A stretch of 64,000 nt of DNA from Escherichia coli (GTDB taxonomy: Bacteria > Pseudomonadota > Gammaproteobacteria > Enterobacterales > Enterobacteriaceae). The notes under the pieces were generated by a model. The model was not told where the DNA came from. It made no database searches and was given only the letters and a program-made list of their open reading frames with translations. The position numbers and the translations under genes were made by a program. The DNA is taken from assembly GCF_003019035.1 (NCBI RefSeq), contig NZ_CP027447.1. One strand, 5' to 3'. This document shows positions 8,456 through 18,904 of this stretch, piece by piece. Positions within the stretch are counted from its first letter, which is position 1, and every line of letters starts with the position of its first letter.

Positions 8456-9280
8456 ATGACCGAATTTACAACACTTCTTCAGCAAGGAAACGCCTGGTTC
8501 TTCATCCCCAGCGCCATCTTACTTGGTGCGCTTCATGGCCTGGAACCGGGGCACTCAAAAACGATGATGGCGGCGTTTATCATCGCCATCAAAGGCACCA
8601 TTAAACAGGCGGTGATGCTCGGACTGGCAGCAACCATTTCGCATACCGCAGTGGTCTGGTTAATTGCCTTTGGCGGGATGGTGATCAGCAAACGCTTTAC
8701 TGCTCAATCAGCAGAACCGTGGCTCCAGTTGATTTCCGCAGTGATCATTATTAGCACCGCGTTCTGGATGTTCTGGCGTACCTGGCGCGGCGAACGCAAC
8801 TGGCTGGAGAATATGCACGAGCATGATCATGAGCATCATCACCACGATCACGAAGATCACCACGACCATGGACATCATCACCATCACGAACATGGCGAGT
8901 ATCAGGATGCCCATGCACGAGCCCATGCCAATGACATTAAACGACGCTTTGATGGTAGAGAGGTCACCAACTGGCAAATTTTGCTATTTGGCTTAACCGG
9001 TGGCCTTATCCCCTGCCCGGCAGCAATTACCGTGCTGTTGATTTGCATTCAGTTGAAAGCCCTGACACTGGGCGCAACACTGGTCGTCAGTTTCAGCCTC
9101 GGCCTGGCGTTAACGCTTGTCACCGTAGGCGTTGGCGCAGCAATCAGCGTTCAGCAGGTCGCAAAACGCTGGAGCGGATTTAACACTCTCGCTAAACGCG
9201 CTCCCTATTTTTCCAGTCTGTTGATTGGCTTAGTTGGTGTGTATATGGGCGTACATGGCTTCATGGGCATAATGCGATAA
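8456..9280 (+). CDS. rcnA: Nickel/cobalt efflux membrane protein with His-rich cytoplasmic loop, 274 aa
   Basis: Polytopic membrane ORF with central His-rich segment (HEHDHEHHHHDHEDHHDHGHHHHHEHG) encoded by CAT/CAC-rich DNA ~8820-8900. Confidence 0.95.
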   Translation: MTEFTTLLQQGNAWFFIPSAILLGALHGLEPGHSKTMMAAFIIAIKGTIKQAVMLGLAATISHTAVVWLIAFGGMVISKRFTAQSAEPWLQLISAVIIISTAFWMFWRTWRGERNWLENMHEHDHEHHHHDHEDHHDHGHHHHHEHGEYQDAHARAHANDIKRRFDGREVTNWQILLFGLTGGLIPCPAAITVLLICIQLKALTLGATLVVSFSLGLALTLVTVGVGAAISVQQVAKRWSGFNTLAKRAPYFSSLLIGLVGVYMGVHGFMGIMR

Positions 9281-9490
9281 CTCAATCCTTTAGGCTTGCA
9301 TGTTATCTTCAGGATTCTTAAATCAGCTATTTCCGCTGACTCTCTGCTCGCTAAGGATGCTTTTAGGGCATCCTTTCATTTACACTTTTTACGAAATCAT
9401 GGGATCACTAACAAAATATCGCTTGTCAGTTATATTGTATGGCAGGAAAGATATGCGACTGATATTACAGATCCCCAAAGTGGAGAGTTT

Positions 9491-9829
9491 ATGACCATTA
9501 AAAATAAGATGTTGCTGGGTGCGCTTTTGCTGGTTACCAGTGCCGCCTGGGCCGCACCAGCCACCGCGGGTTCGACCAATACCTCGGGAATTTCTAAGTA
9601 TGAGTTAAGCAGTTTCATTGCTGACTTTAAGCATTTCAAACCAGGTGACACCGTACCAGAAATGTACCGTACCGATGAGTACAACATTAAGCAGTGGCAG
9701 TTACGTAACCTGCCCGCGCCTGATGCCGGGACGCACTGGACCTATATGGGTGGCGCGTACGTGTTGATCAGCGACACCGACGGTAAAATCATTAAAGCCT
9801 ACGACGGTGAGATTTTTTATCATCGCTAA
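9491..9829 (+). CDS. rcnB: Periplasmic Ni/Co homeostasis protein (112 aa, signal peptide)
   Basis: ORF-track entry 9296..9829 is an N-terminal extension; real start ATG 9491 preceded by GTGGAGAG RBS; product MTIKNKMLLGALLLVTSAAWA.. has a signal peptide; recalled as RcnB/YohN. Confidence 0.9.
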   Translation: MTIKNKMLLGALLLVTSAAWAAPATAGSTNTSGISKYELSSFIADFKHFKPGDTVPEMYRTDEYNIKQWQLRNLPAPDAGTHWTYMGGAYVLISDTDGKIIKAYDGEIFYHR

Positions 9830-9855
9830 AAAAAGCCCCCTCGGAGAGAGGGGGA
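9830..9855. terminator. GC-rich hairpin (CCCCCTC-GGAGA-GAGGGGG) between convergent rcnB and yehA; likely rho-independent terminator, strongest for the minus-strand (yeh) transcript
   Basis: 7-bp G/C stem 9836-9842 / 9848-9854 with 5-nt loop; A-tract on plus strand 5' side gives U-tract after the hairpin on the minus strand. Confidence 0.6.
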
Positions 9856-9910
9856 AATGCAAACACCTTGTTATTTTTTATTATTAGCCACTTGCTCGTC
9901 TTGCTTATTA

Positions 9911-10945
9911 TTAGTCGTATTTCACATTGATTAATGCGGTTGCCTCCAGTGCGCCAGATTTAACTTTGTTTGTATCGTAAACGTAGTAACTGGCCGTTAT
10001 CGGAATTGAAACCGTTGTATCTGTAAGTTTTGACTTTGCCGCAATTTCTTTTAAATTTGTATATCCTTTACTGCTGTTAGTGATATTTAAAAGTGTGACT
10101 GGCGTACCATTACTTTCAAGAATAAATCCTACGCCATTATCTTCCGCACCTTTCAGGATCGTGTTGCTGTTGGTTAACAAGTCAGAACTTGATAAATACA
10201 CCTGCATTTTCCGTGATGTTTGATTTTGTTGACCTAATAAGTTTTTACAACGCAGAACAATATCCCCTTTGTTACTATTTATTGTTGCTTTGTTACCTGT
10301 AGCTGGTAATTGTGAAACGGGAATACTCTCTAAAGTAATTAATAAATCGTCCGGTTTGCAGGTTGTGGTTATCGGGTTGTATGACAATGTCAGATTAAAG
10401 GAATAGACACCTGCATTTTGTGCCAATGCATTTCTGTAGCTATTTACACATGCATCCCATGACTTACCACCTAATAAACACAGTAGAAATTGTACTGCGG
10501 CACTCCCGCGTGTCGATGATGAAGCACTGGATAATGTCGCAACTCCATTAATCATCACTGAACCACCGCCTCCCGCAGAAACATTCACTTTTGCATTACT
10601 GGCCGCAGGTGTCACCGTTACCGAATAACCACTGGTGAAACTGGTCTGATTATTTGACAACGTAATGTTGTTTTTATTGGTCCATTCAAAATGTAAATTT
10701 AATTTAATGGTATCGTTATAAAGTCCAACAATAATATCCGACGGGCTCATAGGGGTGATAGTATTTGTACTCACGCATGACGAATCATTAAAATTATGCT
10801 CATATGTCGCCATTTGTGTTTGAGTAAGTGAAAAATCCCCCTGAACAACCAAATTGTGCTGAACAGATAACTCACTATAACATGCCGCATAGCTCACAGG
10901 CATAACCATCATCATTACTATAAATAGCATTATGCGAATTTCCAT
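9911..10945 (-). CDS. yehA: Fimbrial adhesin-like / tip subunit of Yeh chaperone-usher fimbriae, 344 aa
   Basis: Signal peptide, Ser/Thr/Asn-rich, AT-rich codon usage; last gene of yehDCBA cluster; recalled as YehA. Confidence 0.88.
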   Translation of the reverse strand: MEIRIMLFIVMMMVMPVSYAACYSELSVQHNLVVQGDFSLTQTQMATYEHNFNDSSCVSTNTITPMSPSDIIVGLYNDTIKLNLHFEWTNKNNITLSNNQTSFTSGYSVTVTPAASNAKVNVSAGGGGSVMINGVATLSSASSSTRGSAAVQFLLCLLGGKSWDACVNSYRNALAQNAGVYSFNLTLSYNPITTTCKPDDLLITLESIPVSQLPATGNKATINSNKGDIVLRCKNLLGQQNQTSRKMQVYLSSSDLLTNSNTILKGAEDNGVGFILESNGTPVTLLNITNSSKGYTNLKEIAAKSKLTDTTVSIPITASYYVYDTNKVKSGALEATALINVKYD

Positions 10946-10960
10946 AGAACCACCTGACTA

Positions 10961-13441
10961 TTACTGGCAAATATAATTTCTACTTTCATCAATCTCTTTA
11001 CCGAAGGTGATTGTGCATGAAAGCCCTTGTTGCTTATCAATTGCCACATTAACCGATGGCGGTACTTCATTGGTGCGAATAAATAACTGGCTTCCCTGGC
11101 CGACAACACCAATATTATGACCATGGATATCATTGACTTCATAACCAAACGTTAATGGTTGCCCATCCGCTCTTAACGCTTTTATAAACCATGGCTTGCG
11201 CTGATCGGTATCAAAATTAACCAGTACAACCGCGCCGCGATAAGGGGCGGCAATTTTCCGGTTGCCACGTAATTCTGCTTCGCTATCGCTTTGTGACACA
11301 TCCAACATCAGGTAATTTTCCCGATAAGGTGTCATTCCGTCATATACCACCACTCCATTACGGTTTGTTGTGTGATATTTTTGCCCATTGACATAAGCAT
11401 CTTTAATTCCTGGCGCATTCATCACAGCAAACGTTTCAGAAAGACGGTTTGCCAGATTAACGCCACCCGACCAGGCGACAATGCCCCCTGAAACACTGGC
11501 TCCAGCCTGTCGATAAGCACTCGACTGACTATAACTGCCATTCACTGTCGCAACCGGCGCGTTCCAGGTTAAATTCGCCCCAGCTGTCGTTTCATTTCCC
11601 TGATACTGATAACTCAGGTTGACCCCATAGTTAAACTGATCCCGGCTTCCAACGGTTCCTGATAATCCCGTATTATTTGAGGCAACCCCCTGATCATCAA
11701 ACGTCGTTGAGTTAGACATATATATTTGCCGACGAGGCGTCGTAACGTCATCACCCCAATCAAAGGGAATCGATATAAAAATATTAAAACGTTTCTCTTC
11801 ATGATGATTCTCGTCATAAGCCTGGCTTGCCGCGAGGGTATAGCTTATCCGTCGTAGGTTGTTGGAATAACTCAACTGATAATCCTTACTACTGCCGCTA
11901 CGCCCCCAGTAATCTCGCCATAACGTACTTAATGACACAGAACCCCAGCCTTCTGGCAATGACTGGCTCATATTAGCAGAAAAGCTATTTTTACGGCCAA
12001 AATCGTTCTGGTAATAATCGGCAATGTCATAGATATCGTTTTCATCACGGCGATAATTATCTTTATTGTTTGCCCAAACGTGATCGTTAAATGTCCGGTA
12101 ATCACGCGACGAATAACGCCAGGCCGCCAGACCAAAACGCGTCGACGTTTGGCTCACAAATTTGTTGTAGGCAATTTGATAACTTTGCCCGTCAAACACA
12201 TCGCCGTTGTCTTGTTTACTATGCGACTTCGTGGCATCGACGGAAATGGCACCAATGCGTGTATTCCAGCCAGTCCCCAAAGTGAACGCGTAATAATTAT
12301 TCGCGACCATCGATCCGCCATACAGCGTCAATAAGTTATTAAAACCATACTGATAACCCGCCTGAACAAAATCACTTTGTTTGCTCGCCCCTTCAATATG
12401 GCTACGACCTGCCGCAAAATCATATTTCGACACGCCGGGTTGCAGCATATTCGGCACTGCTGCATAAGGCACCAGATAGGTGGTTACCGAACCGTCCGCC
12501 TCTTTCACGCTGACATCAAGATCTGCTCCACCACCGGCCAACTGCAAATCTGTAATCGCAAACGGGCCAGGAGGAACCTCTTTCTGATAAACCACAAAAC
12601 CGTTCTGTTCAATAGTTACCAGCGCGTTACTCTGAGCAATCCCCTGCACCCGTGGCGTAAAATTCTGTTTCGAGTTAGGCAACATCTGCATATCACGAAA
12701 CAACCGCACACCGCTGAAGCGAACAGAATCAAAAATATCGCTTGATGTGTACATATCACCCACGCGAAGCGTGCCGAGAAGTTGGGCAAATCCACGTTCC
12801 AGATACAGGGTATTGCTTTTCCACACCCCTGGATTGCTATTTGTTTTACTGAAACTGGCATCAGAATGCAGTTGCCACCCCAGTAAGTTTAACCCGCTGT
12901 TAAAACGTACATATGTACTCTTGCTATTACCCGACGCTTTATAGTCGCTGTAATACTGACTCACATAATAAGAGGTATAAAACGCATTAATACCCCGCTC
13001 CCAGTTTTCCGGTGGAACATAGCCACTTTCCAGTTCTTCCACCCACGCCTGCGGGACACTGAAATCGAGACGAAAAACTCCGATATCCCAGGTATAGCTC
13101 CCACCCTGAACAAGTTGCTCAAATGTTAAACATTGCTTACCGCTGGCAAAGTTATCGGTATTAATGCCTAACCGCTTGATAATTTCCCTTGATAAACATG
13201 TTTCTTGCGGGTTGTCTTTAACAATAATCTCATATTTCCCGCGCCATTGCTTATTGACATAAATATCGATGTCATACTGCCCCGGCAAGGGTTGATTATC
13301 ATCAAGACGAATATTTGCAACCTGCTGGTCTTTCATTCCACCTATCATAAAATGGGTATCAAAGGTTTCTTCAGCTGCATAAGCTTCAATGCCGAGCAAT
13401 AACGCTACGATTGCTGATGCAAGTGGGGTCATTCTCAACAT
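10961..13441 (-). CDS. yehB: Outer-membrane fimbrial usher protein, 826 aa
   Basis: ORF-track start (TTG at 13456) rejected; ATG at 13439-13441 gives MLRMTPLASAIVALLLGIEAYA.. signal peptide; large beta-barrel usher-type protein. Confidence 0.9.
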   Translation of the reverse strand: MLRMTPLASAIVALLLGIEAYAAEETFDTHFMIGGMKDQQVANIRLDDNQPLPGQYDIDIYVNKQWRGKYEIIVKDNPQETCLSREIIKRLGINTDNFASGKQCLTFEQLVQGGSYTWDIGVFRLDFSVPQAWVEELESGYVPPENWERGINAFYTSYYVSQYYSDYKASGNSKSTYVRFNSGLNLLGWQLHSDASFSKTNSNPGVWKSNTLYLERGFAQLLGTLRVGDMYTSSDIFDSVRFSGVRLFRDMQMLPNSKQNFTPRVQGIAQSNALVTIEQNGFVVYQKEVPPGPFAITDLQLAGGGADLDVSVKEADGSVTTYLVPYAAVPNMLQPGVSKYDFAAGRSHIEGASKQSDFVQAGYQYGFNNLLTLYGGSMVANNYYAFTLGTGWNTRIGAISVDATKSHSKQDNGDVFDGQSYQIAYNKFVSQTSTRFGLAAWRYSSRDYRTFNDHVWANNKDNYRRDENDIYDIADYYQNDFGRKNSFSANMSQSLPEGWGSVSLSTLWRDYWGRSGSSKDYQLSYSNNLRRISYTLAASQAYDENHHEEKRFNIFISIPFDWGDDVTTPRRQIYMSNSTTFDDQGVASNNTGLSGTVGSRDQFNYGVNLSYQYQGNETTAGANLTWNAPVATVNGSYSQSSAYRQAGASVSGGIVAWSGGVNLANRLSETFAVMNAPGIKDAYVNGQKYHTTNRNGVVVYDGMTPYRENYLMLDVSQSDSEAELRGNRKIAAPYRGAVVLVNFDTDQRKPWFIKALRADGQPLTFGYEVNDIHGHNIGVVGQGSQLFIRTNEVPPSVNVAIDKQQGLSCTITFGKEIDESRNYICQ

Positions 13442-13456
13442 AGGCAGCTCCTGCAA

Positions 13457-14131
13457 TTAAATTTTGTCACTAATATAGTTGCCATGGTCATCGATAATGG
13501 TCAGATGCCAGTTATTCGCATTATTACTTTTGACATTAATACTCTGACTTTCTAAGGGGGCAATCATAATAGTTTCATAATTGACTTTGACATTATTAGC
13601 TTTGACATCCGAAATCGTCACCCAATTTGCTGAGTCATTTTTTATCACCAATCCATTGCCACTGCGATTTACCCGTAACTTTTTAAATGTCGCTTTATTT
13701 ACCGGTGCAATACCCGCAGGCCGGTAAAACAATTTGATTCTGTTTTGCATTGCAAATTTCAGTGCATTCTTGCCCTCTTGCTCTGGACTATTTGGTGGAA
13801 TATCCAGAACATTCAGATAAAAAATGCTCTCTTTATTAGTGGGCAGTTTATTCGGCATAATTTTGATTTTTACTTGCTGCCCGGAATTTGCCCCTATTTT
13901 TGCCACTGGTGGCGTTAACATGAAAGGAACCTGAATTTTTTCTGGTGGTAACGACGTATCACCATCATCAATCCACGCCTGCAGCAGCGAAGAACGGTTT
14001 CCCTGATTCATCAACTGCACCATCACTTCTTTATTTTCTGCCGGGTAAATAATACGCGTCCCGTAGATAACAATACCGGCATGTGCAGGAAGGACCATAG
14101 AAGAAATGAGTAAAGCAAATAATCCTTTCAT
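13457..14131 (-). CDS. yehC: Periplasmic fimbrial chaperone (PapD-like), 224 aa
   Basis: Signal peptide MKGLFALLISSMVLPAHA followed by chaperone-like sequence; sits between major subunit and usher genes. Confidence 0.88.
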   Translation of the reverse strand: MKGLFALLISSMVLPAHAGIVIYGTRIIYPAENKEVMVQLMNQGNRSSLLQAWIDDGDTSLPPEKIQVPFMLTPPVAKIGANSGQQVKIKIMPNKLPTNKESIFYLNVLDIPPNSPEQEGKNALKFAMQNRIKLFYRPAGIAPVNKATFKKLRVNRSGNGLVIKNDSANWVTISDVKANNVKVNYETIMIAPLESQSINVKSNNANNWHLTIIDDHGNYISDKI

Positions 14132-14150
14132 CTTAATGCCTCTTAAATTA

Positions 14151-14180
14151 AAAGGCCGCCATGGGGATAGCGGCCATGTT
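14151..14180 (-). terminator. Putative intra-operon hairpin/attenuator between yehD and yehC
   Basis: GGCCGC..(9 nt)..GCGGCC hairpin (14155-14175); on the minus strand it is followed by a U-rich tract (plus-strand AAAA/TTAAATTAA); such partial terminators after the major pilin gene are common in fimbrial operons. Confidence 0.4.
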
Positions 14181-14211
14181 TATTACCTGGAGAAACTTGA
14201 AATTTTATTTA

Positions 14212-14754
14212 TTAATCCTGCGCCACACGCATAACCAGAGAAGATAACACATCACCTGATTGCACTGAATTATCTGTCAGCTTCAGGTATTTTGCTTTAA
14301 ACGGAATAGCATATTGACCTTCCGCTGTTTTATAACTCTCAATGTTAAAAGGTGCAGAAACATCCAGGACATCGCTGTTATCACCTAAATAGAGATAGTA
14401 CCCCACGGTATCGTTGCTACTGGCTATCGCCTTATCGTTTCCGGTTATTTTATCGTTGGTAATCAACGAGAGTTTTACACCAGCAACTTCTTTCGGACAG
14501 CTAATTTTTAACATGCTGCTGGTTACACCGACTGCATCATCATAGGTCGAGTATTTAGCTTTACCTTCAAAGACAGTGGTTGGTACAGTTGGCATATTAA
14601 TACTTACTGAATCGCCACCCGCTTCGAATTTACACGGAGATTCTGCAATATTCCCTTTAATGGTTAATGTTCCGGTATCAACGTCTGCGGCAAATACCCC
14701 AGCGCTCATAAAAAAAGAAGAAAAGACAGCGGCAGCAATAATTGAACGTTTCAT
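14212..14754 (-). CDS. yehD: Fimbrial major subunit-like protein, 180 aa
   Basis: Signal peptide MKRSIIAAAVFSSFFMSAGVFA, pilin-like size and conserved Cys pair; first gene of the cluster with long AT-rich upstream region. Confidence 0.9.
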   Translation of the reverse strand: MKRSIIAAAVFSSFFMSAGVFAADVDTGTLTIKGNIAESPCKFEAGGDSVSINMPTVPTTVFEGKAKYSTYDDAVGVTSSMLKISCPKEVAGVKLSLITNDKITGNDKAIASSNDTVGYYLYLGDNSDVLDVSAPFNIESYKTAEGQYAIPFKAKYLKLTDNSVQSGDVLSSLVMRVAQD

Positions 14755-15049
14755 AATATGTTCCTTAATAAAATTTATTTTTTGGTTGTTAAGAGTCTGT
14801 ATCTCTTGGAAACAAATTTCTCACATCAAAAAAGTTGCTGCAATGTAAACATATTGTTTTATTGATTTAAAACAAATTAACTATTGCAATATAAATACAA
14901 CAAATACTTAAGCATATTAAATATTTATCACATCTATTAATTAATGCGGATTTTTGTAAATGGTATTATTGATATCAATAAAAAAGCTGAAATCATTCAC
15001 ACGAATGATTTCAGCTTTCTAAATCCGATTAAAAAACCAGGGTGGCAAA

Positions 15050-15331
15050 TTAATCGTAGCGATTTAACACGATTCGACGTTTGCTATCGCTACCTGCAAC
15101 AACCACTTCTGTCGTTACACCTTTGACTGGCGAAGAAACCTGATGACGGGTATCAACATCATACGTTAACTGACCACAATGCTGTTGAGGTTGACCATTA
15201 ACCATAGCCATACTGCATGTTGGGGGACTGATCCTGCCATTAATCGTTAATGTGGCAGTCTGTGAAGAGAACGCGGGAGAAGCCATTCCATAGGCAAGAA
15301 AAATAATTCCTGACAGCCAGTACTTATTCAT
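15050..15331 (-). CDS. yehE: Small secreted protein of unknown function (93 aa) upstream of the yeh fimbrial genes
   Basis: Signal peptide MNKYWLSGIIFLAYGMASPAFS; recalled as YehE. Confidence 0.8.
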   Translation of the reverse strand: MNKYWLSGIIFLAYGMASPAFSSQTATLTINGRISPPTCSMAMVNGQPQQHCGQLTYDVDTRHQVSSPVKGVTTEVVVAGSDSKRRIVLNRYD

Positions 15332-15593
15332 TGAACGTTATCCCTGTAGTAAAGGTTATGCCTGGATAGAATGAGTGCATAACAAACTATAGCTGTACAT
15401 CCACTACACAGCCACGAAGGATGATAATGAAGCATTGCCTGTACGATCAATCGACTTTATAGAGTTTCGGACGAAGGTCCGCAGAATATTTGCAGCATTA
15501 AATAAGTGTTCATTAATGCGGCAAAAACAAATACACCGCATCAATGTAACATCTCTGCGGTGTATGAAAAACAACCAAAAAGGTTAATACGCG

Positions 15594-16703
15594 TTAGACC
15601 GCGCGGAAGGAAATCTCGCCAGGAATGACTTCTCCCTGCCAATAAAGCTGGGCTGCAACGCGGTCAGCCAGCTGGCGGTAGATAGCGGTAAATTCGCTCT
15701 CCGGACGGCTGATAACCGTTGGCGTGCCTTTATCGAGATCTTCACGTAAGGAGATGTGTAACGGCATCTGCCCCAGCAACTGCGTGTGGTATTTCTCGGC
15801 CAGTTTCTCTGCACCACCGGTACCGAAAATCGGTTCATGGTGACCACAGTTACTGCAAATATGCACACTCATGTTCTCGACAATACCGAGCACCGGAACC
15901 TCGACTTTCTCGAACATCACAATGCCTTTTTTCGCATCGATCAACGCAATGTCCTGCGGGGTGGTGACCACTACCGCGCCAGTTACTGGAATGTTTTGTG
16001 CCAGTGTCAATTGAATGTCACCGGTGCCTGGCGGCATATCAAGCACCAGATAGTCGAGATCCGGCCACAAGGTTTCCTGCAACATTTGCATTAACGCCTT
16101 GCTCGCCATCGGACCACGCCACACCATCGCATTGTCGTCAGTGACCAGATAACCAATTGAATTGGTTGCAAGGCCATGAGACATAATCGGTGCCATGTGG
16201 GTACCGTCCGGCGAAGTTGGACGCTGATTTTCTGCGCCCAGCATGGTGGGGATTGATGGGCCGTAGATATCGGCGTCCAGAATGCCGACTTTCGCCCCTT
16301 CCGCCGCCAGTGCCAACGCCAGGTTTACCGCCGTGGAAGATTTACCCACGCCGCCTTTACCGGAACTGACCGCAATGATGTTCTTCACGCCATTAATACC
16401 CGGCTGATTCTTCACGCGTTTTAAGGTGGCGATATTGTGCGACAGTTTCCAGTCGATAGCTTTCGCCCCGGTGATACGCAGCAGTTCGGCGCTACATTGC
16501 TCTTTTAACTCTTCGAACGCGCTATGCCAGACGAATGGCATAACCAGTTCCACATGCAACGTGTCGTCCATCCAGGCGACATGGTGCAACGCTTTCAGCG
16601 TGGTGAGGTTATGCTTCAGGGTTGGGTGCTGAAAATTGGCCAGTGTCCCGGCGACCATTGCGCGCAAGGCTTCTGGTGATTTGGCCTGGGATTGTTCGTT
16701 CAT
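15594..16703 (-). CDS. mrp: Fe-S cluster carrier P-loop ATPase (Mrp/ApbC/NBP35 family), 369 aa
   Basis: Deviant Walker A SSGKGGVGKSSTAVNLA and CxxC motif (CSNCGHH); divergent from metG. Confidence 0.95.
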   Translation of the reverse strand: MNEQSQAKSPEALRAMVAGTLANFQHPTLKHNLTTLKALHHVAWMDDTLHVELVMPFVWHSAFEELKEQCSAELLRITGAKAIDWKLSHNIATLKRVKNQPGINGVKNIIAVSSGKGGVGKSSTAVNLALALAAEGAKVGILDADIYGPSIPTMLGAENQRPTSPDGTHMAPIMSHGLATNSIGYLVTDDNAMVWRGPMASKALMQMLQETLWPDLDYLVLDMPPGTGDIQLTLAQNIPVTGAVVVTTPQDIALIDAKKGIVMFEKVEVPVLGIVENMSVHICSNCGHHEPIFGTGGAEKLAEKYHTQLLGQMPLHISLREDLDKGTPTVISRPESEFTAIYRQLADRVAAQLYWQGEVIPGEISFRAV

Positions 16704-16870
16704 CCCGACTCCTTATTTATAAAGATAACTTATCGCTATTAGTTTACCTGAAGTTAACAGCTAAGTACTTACCTAATAATGCATCATAAGATGCTTGCAC
16801 AGGACTTACGTAACCATGCCCCATTTGGTACTATCTAAGCCCTTTTCACTACAAAGAAGTAATGCCTACT

Positions 16871-18904
16871 ATGACTCAAGTCGCGAAGAAAATTCTGGTG
16901 ACGTGCGCACTGCCGTACGCTAACGGCTCAATCCACCTCGGCCATATGCTGGAGCACATCCAGGCTGATGTCTGGGTCCGTTACCAGCGAATGCGCGGCC
17001 ACGAGGTCAACTTCATCTGCGCCGACGATGCCCACGGTACACCGATCATGCTGAAAGCTCAGCAGCTCGGTATCACCCCGGAGCAGATGATTGGCGAAAT
17101 GAGTCAGGAGCATCAGACTGATTTCGCAGGCTTTAACATCAGCTATGACAACTATCACTCGACGCACAGCGAAGAGAACCGCCAGTTGTCAGAACTTATC
17201 TACTCTCGCCTGAAAGAAAACGGTTTTATTAAAAACCGCACTATTTCTCAGCTGTACGATCCGGAAAAAGGCATGTTCCTGCCGGACCGTTTTGTGAAAG
17301 GCACCTGCCCGAAATGTAAATCCCCGGATCAATACGGCGATAACTGCGAAGTCTGCGGCGCGACCTACAGCCCGACTGAATTGATCGAGCCGAAATCGGT
17401 GGTTTCTGGCGCTACGCCGGTAATGCGTGATTCTGAACACTTCTTCTTTGATCTGCCCTCTTTCAGCGAAATGTTGCAGGCATGGACCCGCAGCGGTGCG
17501 TTGCAGGAGCAGGTGGCAAATAAAATGCAGGAGTGGTTTGAATCCGGCCTGCAACAGTGGGATATCTCCCGCGACGCGCCGTACTTCGGTTTTGAAATTC
17601 CGAACGCGCCGGGTAAATATTTCTACGTCTGGCTGGATGCGCCGATTGGCTATATGGGTTCTTTCAAGAATCTGTGCGACAAGCGCGGCGACAGCGTAAG
17701 CTTCGATGAATACTGGAAGAAAGACTCCACCGCCGAGCTGTACCACTTCATCGGTAAAGATATTGTTTACTTCCACAGCCTGTTCTGGCCAGCAATGCTG
17801 GAAGGCAGCAACTTCCGCAAGCCGACCAACCTGTTTGTTCATGGCTATGTGACGGTGAACGGCGCGAAGATGTCTAAGTCTCGCGGTACCTTTATTAAGG
17901 CCAGCACCTGGCTGAATCATTTTGACGCCGACAGCCTGCGTTACTACTACACTGCGAAACTCTCTTCGCGCATTGATGATATCGATCTCAACCTGGAAGA
18001 TTTCGTTCAGCGCGTGAATGCCGATATCGTTAACAAAGTGGTTAACCTGGCCTCTCGTAATGCGGGCTTTATCAACAAGCGTTTTGACGGCGTGCTGGCA
18101 AGCGAACTGGCTGACCCGCAGTTGTACAAAACCTTCACGGATGCCGCTGAAGTGATTGGTGAAGCGTGGGAAAGCCGCGAATTTGGTAAAGCAGTGCGCG
18201 AAATCATGGCGCTGGCTGATCTGGCTAACCGCTATGTCGATGAACAGGCTCCGTGGGTGGTGGCAAAACAGGAAGGCCGCGATGCCGACCTGCAGGCAAT
18301 TTGCTCAATGGGCATAAACCTGTTCCGCGTGCTGATGACTTACCTGAAGCCGGTACTGCCGAAACTGACCGAGCGCGCAGAAGCATTCCTCAATACAGAA
18401 CTGACCTGGGATGGTATCCAGCAACCGCTGCTGGGCCACAAAGTGAATCCGTTCAAAGCGCTGTATAACCGCATCGATATGAAGCAGGTTGAAGCACTGG
18501 TGGAAGCGTCTAAAGAAGAAGTGAAAGCAGCTGCCGCGCCAGTTACTGGCCCACTGGCAGATGATCCGATTCAGGAAACCATCACCTTTGACGACTTCGC
18601 CAAAGTTGACCTGCGCGTGGCGCTGATCGAAAACGCAGAGTTTGTTGAAGGTTCTGACAAACTGCTGCGCCTGACGCTGGATCTCGGCGGTGAAAAACGC
18701 AATGTCTTCTCCGGCATTCGTTCTGCTTACCCGGATCCGCAGGCACTTATTGGTCGTCATACCATTATGGTGGCTAACCTGGCACCACGTAAAATGCGCT
18801 TCGGTATCTCCGAAGGCATGGTGATGGCTGCCGGTCCTGGCGGGAAAGATATCTTCCTGCTAAGCCCGGATGCTGGTGCTAAACCGGGTCATCAGGTGAA
18901 ATAA
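16871..18904 (+). CDS. metG: Methionine--tRNA ligase, 677 aa
   Basis: HIGH-type motif ([10 protein letters not shown]) and KMSKS motif ([10 protein letters not shown]); start set at ATG 16871 ([11 protein letters not shown]..) instead of upstream ATG 16862. Confidence 0.97.

Follow-up and report, generated by a model that had tools for sequence, protein, structure and literature searches.

The Yeh fimbriae of Escherichia coli are the equivalent of the Stc fimbriae of Salmonella and have core status in E. coli (PMC3559732), and Stc forms thin fimbriae when placed under an inducible promoter (PMC5583245). The yehDCBA operon is described as cryptic but functional, its repression by H-NS being credited to Korea et al. 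(PMC5797941). According to the same source, the operon overlaps a predicted genomic island and H-NS-bound regions, is bound by H-NS in two genome-wide data sets (Kahramanoglou and Oshima), and is induced 3.6-fold by SlyA, an H-NS antagonist, in a response that is joint for all four genes (Table 2 footnote; PMC5797941). The H-NS occupancy of yehDCBA is taken from K-12 papers, which concern a strain other than the one studied here. Selective RNA processing and stabilisation have been reported for two other fimbrial operons, pap and CFA/I (PMC4423207).

The region at positions 9911-15331 of the window, that is, of the whole 64-kb stretch of E. coli DNA analysed here, holds the E. coli gene cluster for Yeh fimbriae, to which Stc corresponds in Salmonella. 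The yehDCBA operon has already been published, and the present follow-up adds modestly to what is known. The best explanation overall, to which we give a probability of about 70%, is an H-NS-silenced Yeh cluster with a conserved control module and an excess of yehD mRNA set by a hairpin.

Gene content and age of the yeh locus

The genes yehA, yehB, yehC, yehD, and yehE are intact on the minus strand, according to the ORF list and the RefSeq annotation of a near-identical record, in which no yeh gene is flagged as a pseudogene. The locus shows 2 mismatches in 5801 bases to NZ_CP051751 (strain SCU-301), one at 14839 in the control region and one at 12245 in yehB. The span also contains a fifth gene, yehE, which had not been named in the original prediction. 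The genes, assigned from ORFs, annotation, and Pfam, and a downstream element, found by pattern scan and folding, are as follows:

9828-9854, minus strand: terminator-like hairpin followed by U7, 3' of yehA
9911-10945, minus strand: yehA, putative tip adhesin, 344 aa
10961-13441, minus strand: yehB, outer-membrane usher, 826 aa, with PapC_N, Usher, and PapC_C domains
13457-14131, minus strand: yehC, periplasmic chaperone, 224 aa, with PapD_N and PapD_C domains
14212-14754, minus strand: yehD, major fimbrial subunit, 180 aa
15050-15331, minus strand: yehE, a separate small gene, 93 aa, DUF2574, with a signal peptide

The predicted order of major subunit, chaperone, usher, and adhesin, with all ORFs intact, was borne out by the ORFs, the RefSeq annotation, and Pfam. 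YehC carries the N- and C-terminal PapD domains (PF00345, E 5e-42; PF02753, E 6e-9), YehB is a three-domain usher (PF00577, E 7e-194, plus PF13954 and PF13953), and YehD matches PF00419 above the family cut-off, as a pilin-type major subunit does. In YehA, PF00419 covers only residues 184-344, the C-terminal pilin domain, and the N-terminal half has no Pfam family match. With a chaperone, an usher, a pilin, and a putative two-domain adhesin, yehDCBA is a chaperone-usher fimbrial operon. The hairpin and U7 at 9828-9854 likely represent the putative end of the operon transcript. An Rfam scan of 9000-17000 at E values up to 1 returned no known RNA family.

Of 5426 complete E. coli genomes, 5423 carry the yeh locus, and a synteny comparison showed that the gene order apbC-yehE-yehDCBA-rcnB is common to E. 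coli, Salmonella (Stc), and Citrobacter. Conservation differs strongly along the locus. Identity between genera is 70-77% for the usher gene and 62-65% for yehD. In a separate comparison between genera, yehC is conserved (58-71%) and the mature part of YehD is hypervariable (31-39%), with a conserved signal peptide. Other species carry either a different adhesin in place of YehA or one that has diverged strongly. The AT-rich region upstream of yehD had been called typical of horizontally acquired promoters, but the locus is not a recent acquisition, as its near-universal presence and the same neighbours in Salmonella and Citrobacter show. Neither the patchy distribution nor the lineage-specific insertion of a recent island was found, Escherichia, Salmonella, and Citrobacter sharing the same locus. 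The yeh locus is thus an old one, passed on by vertical descent in these genera.

The AT-rich region upstream of yehD

The extreme AT-richness claimed for the region upstream of yehD was confirmed by the GC profile. The 295-bp spacer between yehE and yehD (14755-15049) has a GC content of 0.247, the lowest in the 64-kb window, and is the sole stretch of this length with a GC content of 0.30 or less (fraction of windows at or below its value, 0.00085). The window mean is 0.507, the operon has 0.425, and its flanks have 0.49-0.54. The suggestion that yehDCBA is silenced by H-NS likewise finds support in the literature, both in the binding of H-NS and in the 3.6-fold induction by SlyA (PMC5797941). 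H-NS coating of this upstream region of 25% GC would keep yehDCBA off in laboratory growth, and antagonists such as SlyA would relieve the silencing, as the published data indicate. A search with the high-affinity H-NS motif, which we take to be TCGATAAATT, gave one match with two mismatches, which is no more than shuffles yield.

The supposed leader of about 300 bp did not hold up as a single element. It is a composite of the yehE terminator, a poorly conserved stretch, and about 170 bp with near-invariant blocks:

14980-15020, minus strand: yehE intrinsic terminator, a long hairpin followed by U6 (fold and comparison)
14925-14979, minus strand: distal spacer, very AT-rich and poorly conserved (52-63% identity between genera)
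14755-14924, minus strand: conserved AT-rich control region, probable yehD 5' UTR (cross-genus comparison)
14885-14906, minus strand: conserved block TATTTGTTG..TATATTGCA
14854-14875, minus strand: conserved block, perfect inverted repeat TTGTTTTA-N6-TAAAACAA with 8-bp arms
14834-14850, minus strand: conserved block GTTTACATTGCRGYAAC
14816-14825, minus strand: conserved block TGTGAGAAAT
14791-14807, minus strand: small 5-bp helix AAGAG/CUCUU, named by hand and with moderate support only
within 14755-14924, minus strand: yehD ribosome-binding site AAGGAA

The yehE terminator occupies the first ~70 nt of the supposed leader, and its hairpin (dG -27.6, z -6.3) is much stronger than the one between yehD and yehC. 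Its lower stem covaries, and the upper one (..AUCAUUC / GAAUGAU..) keeps its sequence. The gene yehE would form the first of two minus-strand transcription units, ending at its own strong terminator, and yehDCBA the second. A small ORF starting from the terminator loop, (A/G)TGAATGAT..., was considered and rejected; it spans 5-35 codons with no conserved stop and, apart from the residues that the hairpin and U-run themselves specify, its peptide is not conserved.

The gene yehE accompanies Yeh/Stc operons, and YehE shows homology, over its first 42 residues, to the N-terminal end of the major subunit. YehE appears to be a secreted 70-residue protein whose N-terminus probably comes from the pilin donor-strand region. 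As a complete mini-pilin, it was modelled by AlphaFold with a pLDDT of 61 alone and of 65 (pTM 0.39) in a fusion with the YehD donor strand, and a Foldseek search of the model against the PDB gave no match with an E value below 0.7. Of the mini-pilin reading, only the N-terminal homology stands. A literature search by gene name retrieved nothing on yehE and nothing joining yehE, yehD, and yehC.

The spacer between yehE and yehD has a GC content of 24-32% in every genus compared, and so its low GC is maintained rather than the fading signature of an import. The AT-rich region could instead be a mere compositional residue of a foreign island that binds H-NS non-specifically and has no regulatory content. 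Its position as the GC minimum of the window agrees with such a residue, as does the published overlap of the operon with an island prediction and with stretches bound by H-NS (PMC5797941). However, the proximal 170 bp have an identity of 73-79% between genera and are about as conserved as the usher gene and more so than yehD and the distal spacer. The control blocks, including the perfect 8-bp inverted repeat, are nearly invariant in four genera (Escherichia, Salmonella, Citrobacter, and Superficieibacter) and, in about 30 loci, keep a constant spacing to the start codon, paralogous and plasmid copies included. The same control module is also found upstream of paralogous and plasmid-borne Yeh-like operons. 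A compositional residue is therefore an unlikely explanation. The ~170 bp adjoining yehD more probably constitute a conserved control module with the promoter and candidate regulator sites. Since the 24-32% GC predates the Escherichia/Salmonella split and the blocks are near-invariant, a specific conserved induction signal for these core cryptic fimbriae is probable.

Several familiar kinds of control element were looked for. Pattern scanning and inspection of the alignments gave no convincing sigma-70 -35/-10 pair for yehD, and RNAalifold predicted no consensus structure for the 106 nt upstream of yehD. No GATC occurs within 14755-15049, which leaves no paired Dam sites of the Pap type. A search for invertible-switch repeats with arms up to 60 bp apart, closer together than those of the fim switch, found only short local palindromes. 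Resemblances of the blocks to PhoP, OmpR, CpxR, and TyrR sites were weighed and dropped as unconvincing. A more specific proposal, which we regard as tentative, is that a block of ~120 bp (TATTTGTTG..TATATTGCA, TTGTTTTA-N6-TAAAACAA, GTTTACATTGCGGYAAC, and TGTGAGAAT) may serve as a platform for a dedicated regulator or switch that wakes the Yeh/Stc fimbriae and, separately, that YehE may be a functional fimbrial accessory, e.g., a cap or assembly modulator. If true, either would help to establish under which conditions these "cryptic" core fimbriae come into use.

The hairpin between yehD and yehC

A GC-rich hairpin followed by a U-tract had also been predicted between yehD and yehC. The hairpin part stands, being conserved and showing compensatory changes; the U-tract is present in this allele but missing in about half of the relatives.

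14145-14175, minus strand: RNA stem-loop (14154-14175) and U-tract UUUUAAUUU (14145-14153), from pattern scan, fold, and comparison

The stem has 9 bp, six of them G-C pairs, and closes a CCCC loop (dG -15.7 kcal/mol, z -3.7). The pattern scan gave six terminator-like sites against 8.3 expected from shuffles, a match that is not significant by itself, and the significance of the hairpin therefore rests on its conservation. All 34 Yeh-type loci have a GC-rich hairpin in the spacer from the major-subunit gene to the chaperone gene, with unrelated stem sequences and a median z of -3.1 (below -2 in 30 of the 34). Among the Escherichia hairpins, 97% of cells pair vs 15-61% with slid partners, and double changes from G-C to A-U are seen at two pairs, with a C-G to U-G change at a third. 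The U-G pairs suggest that selection acts on this strand's RNA. The comparison indicates that selection maintains the pairing of the hairpin throughout the Yeh/Stc family and that it is conserved as a structure, not as a sequence. In distant chaperone-usher operons, a top-2% hairpin was found within 160 nt upstream of the chaperone gene in 67% of 43 cases.

The palindrome could alternatively act as DNA with no RNA role, either as a recombination boundary for the swapping of yehD or as a protein-binding site, and it does lie exactly at the border between the hypervariable yehD and the conserved yehC. However, its pairing is kept while the stem sequence differs by lineage, and U-G wobble is tolerated, which fits RNA folding; like hairpins also occur in unrelated chaperone-usher operons. 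We consider a purely DNA-level function very improbable.

The U-tract behaves differently from the stem. At least five U in the next 8 nt were counted in only 15 of the 34 related loci, and the tract is lacking in a second allele of E. coli as well as in E. albertii and E. whittamii. In the studied allele, it consists of four U followed by AAUUU and is thus interrupted. Termination may be weak or nil because the tract is short and absent in many relatives. The genes yehD, yehE, and yehC have no entries in the E. coli Term-seq 3'-end tables of Adams 2021 and TERMITe 2025, tables that may be incomplete, and such absence is expected of a silent operon.

A stable GC-rich stem followed by a U-run is also what a full intrinsic terminator of a monocistronic yehD transcript would look like, in which case yehCBA would be expressed from its own promoter. 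Against this, the run has only four consecutive U and is lacking in about half of the relatives, and the SlyA response is joint for all four genes (PMC5797941). In addition, the yehD-yehC spacer is 80 nt here, vs 47-65 nt in most relatives, and the yehC ribosome-binding site AAGAGG directly follows the hairpin and U-tract on the 3' side, so that little room is left for a yehC promoter. Full termination is accordingly a quite improbable reading.

A function without any termination is a possibility of more weight, though still the lesser one. The hairpin would then act only post-transcriptionally, as a barrier to 3' exonucleases or as a processing signal that lengthens the life of yehD mRNA relative to yehCBA. 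Every locus has the stem-loop, but not every one has the U-tract, and pap and CFA/I provide a precedent (PMC4423207). However, the U-run of this allele passes the consensus scan, and since U-rich tails are present in 15 of the 34 loci, termination probably plays a part in those loci. The two mechanisms can coexist.

In the explanation we prefer, the GC-rich stem-loop after yehD would make yehD mRNA more abundant than yehCBA mRNA, an excess that would supply many subunits per assembly machine. In this allele, some polymerases likely stop at the hairpin and its U-tract, and the hairpin likely also guards yehD-only RNA against exonucleases at its 3' end; where an allele or species lacks the U-tract, only a protective or processing role would apply. 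Because the U-tract is found in only about half of the loci, the conserved role is more likely that of a stem-loop raising subunit mRNA over machinery mRNA, and partial termination is more likely an allele-specific addition.

Comparison with known systems

The operon studied here is the same system as E. coli K-12 yehDCBA and Salmonella stcABCD, with nothing essential that differs. It resembles the targets of H-NS silencing and SlyA counter-silencing, such as hlyE and the cryptic fimbrial operons elf, sfm, and yad, in its AT-rich upstream region, H-NS binding, and SlyA induction (PMC5797941). Unlike typical targets of xenogeneic silencing by H-NS, however, yeh is an ancient, vertically inherited locus with conserved specific blocks in its AT-rich region.

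The yeh allele also shares a GC-rich 9-bp stem, a 4-nt loop, and a U-rich tail with intra-operon intrinsic terminators, but differs from them in its interrupted U-tract, which is not conserved in relatives. As expected of a stabiliser stem-loop, the structure lies at the 3' end of the most-needed cistron and is conserved at the level of structure in 34 of 34 loci. The optional U-tract argues for RNA stability or processing, rather than termination, as the conserved route to subunit excess.

As in pap and CFA/I, the stem-loop of yeh directly follows the major-subunit gene and precedes the assembly genes, and subunit mRNA is expected to exceed machinery mRNA. By analogy with these operons, it is plausible that the hairpin sets subunit stoichiometry. 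The pap operon differs in having a regulator gene, papB, ahead of papA, with RNase E cleavage between the two. Among chaperone-usher operons, yeh offers a clean example of features that are common to them, with leads for specialists in fimbrial regulation.

Gene content and distribution of the yeh cluster

ORF listing and megablast against complete E. coli genomes identified window positions 9911–15331 (minus strand) as the E. coli yeh cluster, which differs from the near-identical strain SCU-301 at two bases, 14839 and 12245, the latter inside yehB. In the RefSeq annotation of the SCU-301 record, the cluster is flanked by rcnB and apbC, none of yehA–yehE is flagged as a pseudogene, and the genes are named as follows.

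Genes of the yeh cluster (RefSeq annotation, SCU-301 record)
yehA: putative adhesin
yehB: usher
yehC: chaperone
yehD: fimbrial protein
yehE: YehE/DUF2574 protein

Pfam domains were detected in YehC (PapD_N, PapD_C), YehB (PapC_N, Usher, PapC_C), YehD (Fimbrial) and YehA (Fimbrial, in residues 184–344 only, the pattern expected of a two-domain adhesin). ORFs, annotation and domains agree that the gene order and intactness of yehDCBA were predicted correctly; the predicted span holds these four genes but also a fifth, yehE, which had not been named. Terminator-like hairpins with U-runs lie 3' of apbC (15523–15563, minus strand) and of yehA (9828–9854, minus strand, between the convergent yehA and rcnB), and so mark off yehE and yehDCBA from their neighbours as distinct units.

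The initial observation is confirmed, and its reading receives partial support. The cluster as a whole is already known, and its yehD–yehC hairpin belongs to a familiar type with nothing unusual about it; the only leads with some novelty are yehE and a conserved control module next to yehD. Yeh has been classified among the core-associated fimbriae: it is intact in 92% of strains, corresponds to Salmonella Stc, and is identically positioned in Salmonella and Citrobacter (PMC3559732). Megablast found the locus in 5423 of 5426 complete E. coli genomes. In a synteny survey (YehC scan of one genome per species, then tblastn of all neighbours), the order apbC-yehE-yehD-yehC-yehB-(yehA)-rcnB was common to Escherichia species, Salmonella enterica subsp. 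arizonae and diarizonae, and many Citrobacter. Given this near-universal presence and shared synteny, the locus is not a recent horizontal acquisition.

The mature major subunit (encoded within 14212–14754) is only 31–39% identical between genera in the relatives L007–L036, while the signal peptide, upstream module, chaperone and usher are conserved. YehA (9911–10945) is often undetectable in relatives or matched in its C-terminal domain only (L005, L028). Such comparisons suggest that the surface-exposed major subunit and adhesin may be under diversifying selection or cassette replacement. A Yeh-like operon is also carried by pPE041_4, an F-like plasmid of swine E. coli (NZ_JBXSFL010000005.1; locus L085, 4099–9933), directly 3' of IS1, with an upstream module and hairpin of the Yeh kind and without yehE; about 11 plasmid matches were counted. 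The Yeh fimbrial type can thus be mobile. In strain 13P484A (record H27, NZ_CP019280.1), an IS1A transposase is annotated inside the yehE-yehD-yehC stretch and may naturally disrupt or activate the operon.

The AT-rich spacer and the yehD-proximal module

The GC content of the yehE–yehD spacer (14755–15049) is 24.7%, and it is the sole 295-bp stretch at or below 30% GC in the 64-kb window, confirming the extreme AT-richness predicted upstream of yehD; the operon has 42.5% GC vs 49–54% for rcnAB, apbC and metG. Because spacer GC is 24–32% in every syntenic relative (43–52% for whole loci), it is maintained, not decaying.

The predicted H-NS silencing agrees with the literature and, being already published, is established knowledge. 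The operon is listed among cryptic chaperone-usher operons, shows H-NS binding in two data sets (Kahramanoglou; Oshima) and overlaps a predicted genomic island; SlyA over-production raises its expression 3.6-fold, every gene behaving alike, and Korea et al. are cited for poor laboratory expression, function from a constitutive promoter and H-NS repression (PMC5797941). H-NS silencing and its relief by SlyA are thereby shown in the literature. Stc formed thin fimbriae under an inducible promoter (PMC5583245).

The spacer is not the single leader originally envisaged; it comprises the yehE terminator, a poorly conserved stretch and a conserved segment of about 170 bp. Directly 3' of the yehE stop codon, a long hairpin with U6 (14980–15020, minus strand; dG −27.6, z −6.3) is a textbook terminator, so that yehE forms a transcription unit by itself. 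In 22 orthologues, pairing of the terminator helix reaches 95% and 50 cells are compensatory; paired percentage, compensatory-cell count and covariation score were each reached by 0 of 500 shuffles. The lower stem covaries freely and the upper stem, above all its 3'-arm sequence UGAAUGAU, hardly differs from genus to genus; an explanation for this invariance was sought and none found, and a small ORF beginning in the loop was considered and rejected.

Between genera, the middle of the spacer is 52–63% identical. The yehD-proximal 170 bp or so reach 73–79% between E. coli and other genera, like the usher gene (70–77%) and above yehD (62–65%) and yehE (58–67%). Alignments revealed near-invariant blocks whose spacing to the yehD start codon is fixed; for those in 14834–14906 this holds in about 30 loci.

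Elements of the yehD-proximal module (from alignment, minus strand)
14885–14906: block TATTTGTTG..TATATTGCA
14854–14875: perfect inverted repeat TTGTTTTA-N6-TAAAACAA
14834–14850: block GTTTACATTGCGGYAAC
14816–14825: block TGTGAGAAT
14791–14807: small helix AAGAG/CUCUU, 83% paired, moderate support only
Ribosome-binding site of yehD

The inverted repeat occurs once in the window vs 0.04 expected by chance; RNAalifold predicted no structure in the region of the small helix. The two longest blocks also precede most paralogous Yeh-like operons without yehE, and the plasmid-borne operon immediately after IS1. No known regulator site convincingly matched the blocks in 14834–14906, and the yehD promoter could not be placed in the upstream region. 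The spacer contains no GATC site, and flanking inverted repeats, sought with arms up to 60 bp apart, were not found; there is thus no sign of a Pap-type switch or, within that arm spacing, of a fim-type one. Position 14839, inside a conserved block, is A in the window and in S. arizonae and Superficieibacter sp. 1612, and G in SCU-301 and most examined Yeh-type loci. In the 5318 E. coli genomes that gave a match, the surrounding 121 nt had a best identity of 99.2%; the exact sequence is thus absent from every complete genome searched.

YehE as a putative pilin derivative

The yehE gene (15050–15331, minus strand) encodes a secreted DUF2574 protein of 93 aa. It accompanies Yeh/Stc operons in four genera (L002–L036), non-syntenic loci included, lies with the operon outside the apbC context in Superficieibacter, is inverted in one case, and is intact with conserved motifs in 27 distinct orthologues. 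By hhalign (probability 96.6%, E 5e-10), residues 1–42, which cover the signal peptide and TATLTINGR..PTC, share homology with the N-terminus of the major subunit, namely its signal peptide and first strand; they also align weakly with the FimG N-terminus. Beyond residue 42 nothing matched; predicted structures had low confidence, and a fold search gave no hit. The homology suggests that yehE is a conserved gene that arose from part of a pilin.

The hairpin between yehD and yehC

The hairpin at 14154–14175 (minus strand; GGCCGCUAU/CCCC/AUGGCGGCC; dG −15.7, z −3.7) is followed by UUUUAAUUU and the yehC ribosome-binding site. A terminator consensus scan gave 6 sites vs 8.3 expected, so matching the consensus carries little weight by itself; what decides is conservation. 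A GC-rich hairpin lies between the major-subunit and chaperone genes in all 34 Yeh-type loci (spacer 47–114 nt), with unrelated stem sequences and a median z of −3.1 (30 of 34 below −2). Compensatory change was assessed within Escherichia, where the spacer is alignable: 97% of cells pair vs 15–61% in slid controls, two pairs went from G-C to A-U by changes in both partners, another went from C-G to U-G, and the wobble pairs point to RNA of the minus (operon) strand. In the minimum-energy fold of 14132–14211 (minus strand), GUUUCU upstream of the hairpin pairs with the yehC ribosome-binding site (AGAGGC); this predicted extension, not conserved outside Escherichia, might mask yehC translation.

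The predicted stem-loop after yehD is therefore real, but conservation does not extend to its U-tract: of the 34 loci, 15 have at least 5 U among the 8 nt that follow and another 15 have at most 3. No such tract is present in E. albertii, E. whittamii, cryptic Escherichia clades or a second E. coli allele (strains 300709 and 123), which have AGCAUAAAUAU after the stem. Because pairing is conserved while the U-tract is not, the stem-loop is the feature selected everywhere, and termination would be at most an allele-specific addition. The two E. coli alleles, the K-12/window type with U-tract (14129–14214) and one resembling E. albertii, in which the stem is longer and the U-tract is missing (L082, 1490–1582; L083, 1482–1574), are accompanied by yehD-region sequences about 80% identical and offer a natural experiment on termination versus stabilisation. 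The searched published tables of transcript 3' ends list none for yehD, yehE or yehC, unsurprisingly for a silent operon.

The structure, position and composition of hairpin and spacer are conserved. The stem-loop is inferred to raise yehD mRNA above yehCBA mRNA, in the window allele through partial termination plus 3'-end protection, and in other alleles and species through protection or processing alone. Among 43 distant chaperone-usher operons (L037–L081; Serratia, Pseudomonas, Acinetobacter, Burkholderiales and others), 67% show a hairpin that ranks among the top 2% for its locus and sits no more than 160 nt upstream of the chaperone gene, which makes a stable hairpin there a general design feature of the class. 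Protection or processing of this kind has been reported for the pap and CFA/I operons (PMC4423207), to which the yeh operon may be likened.
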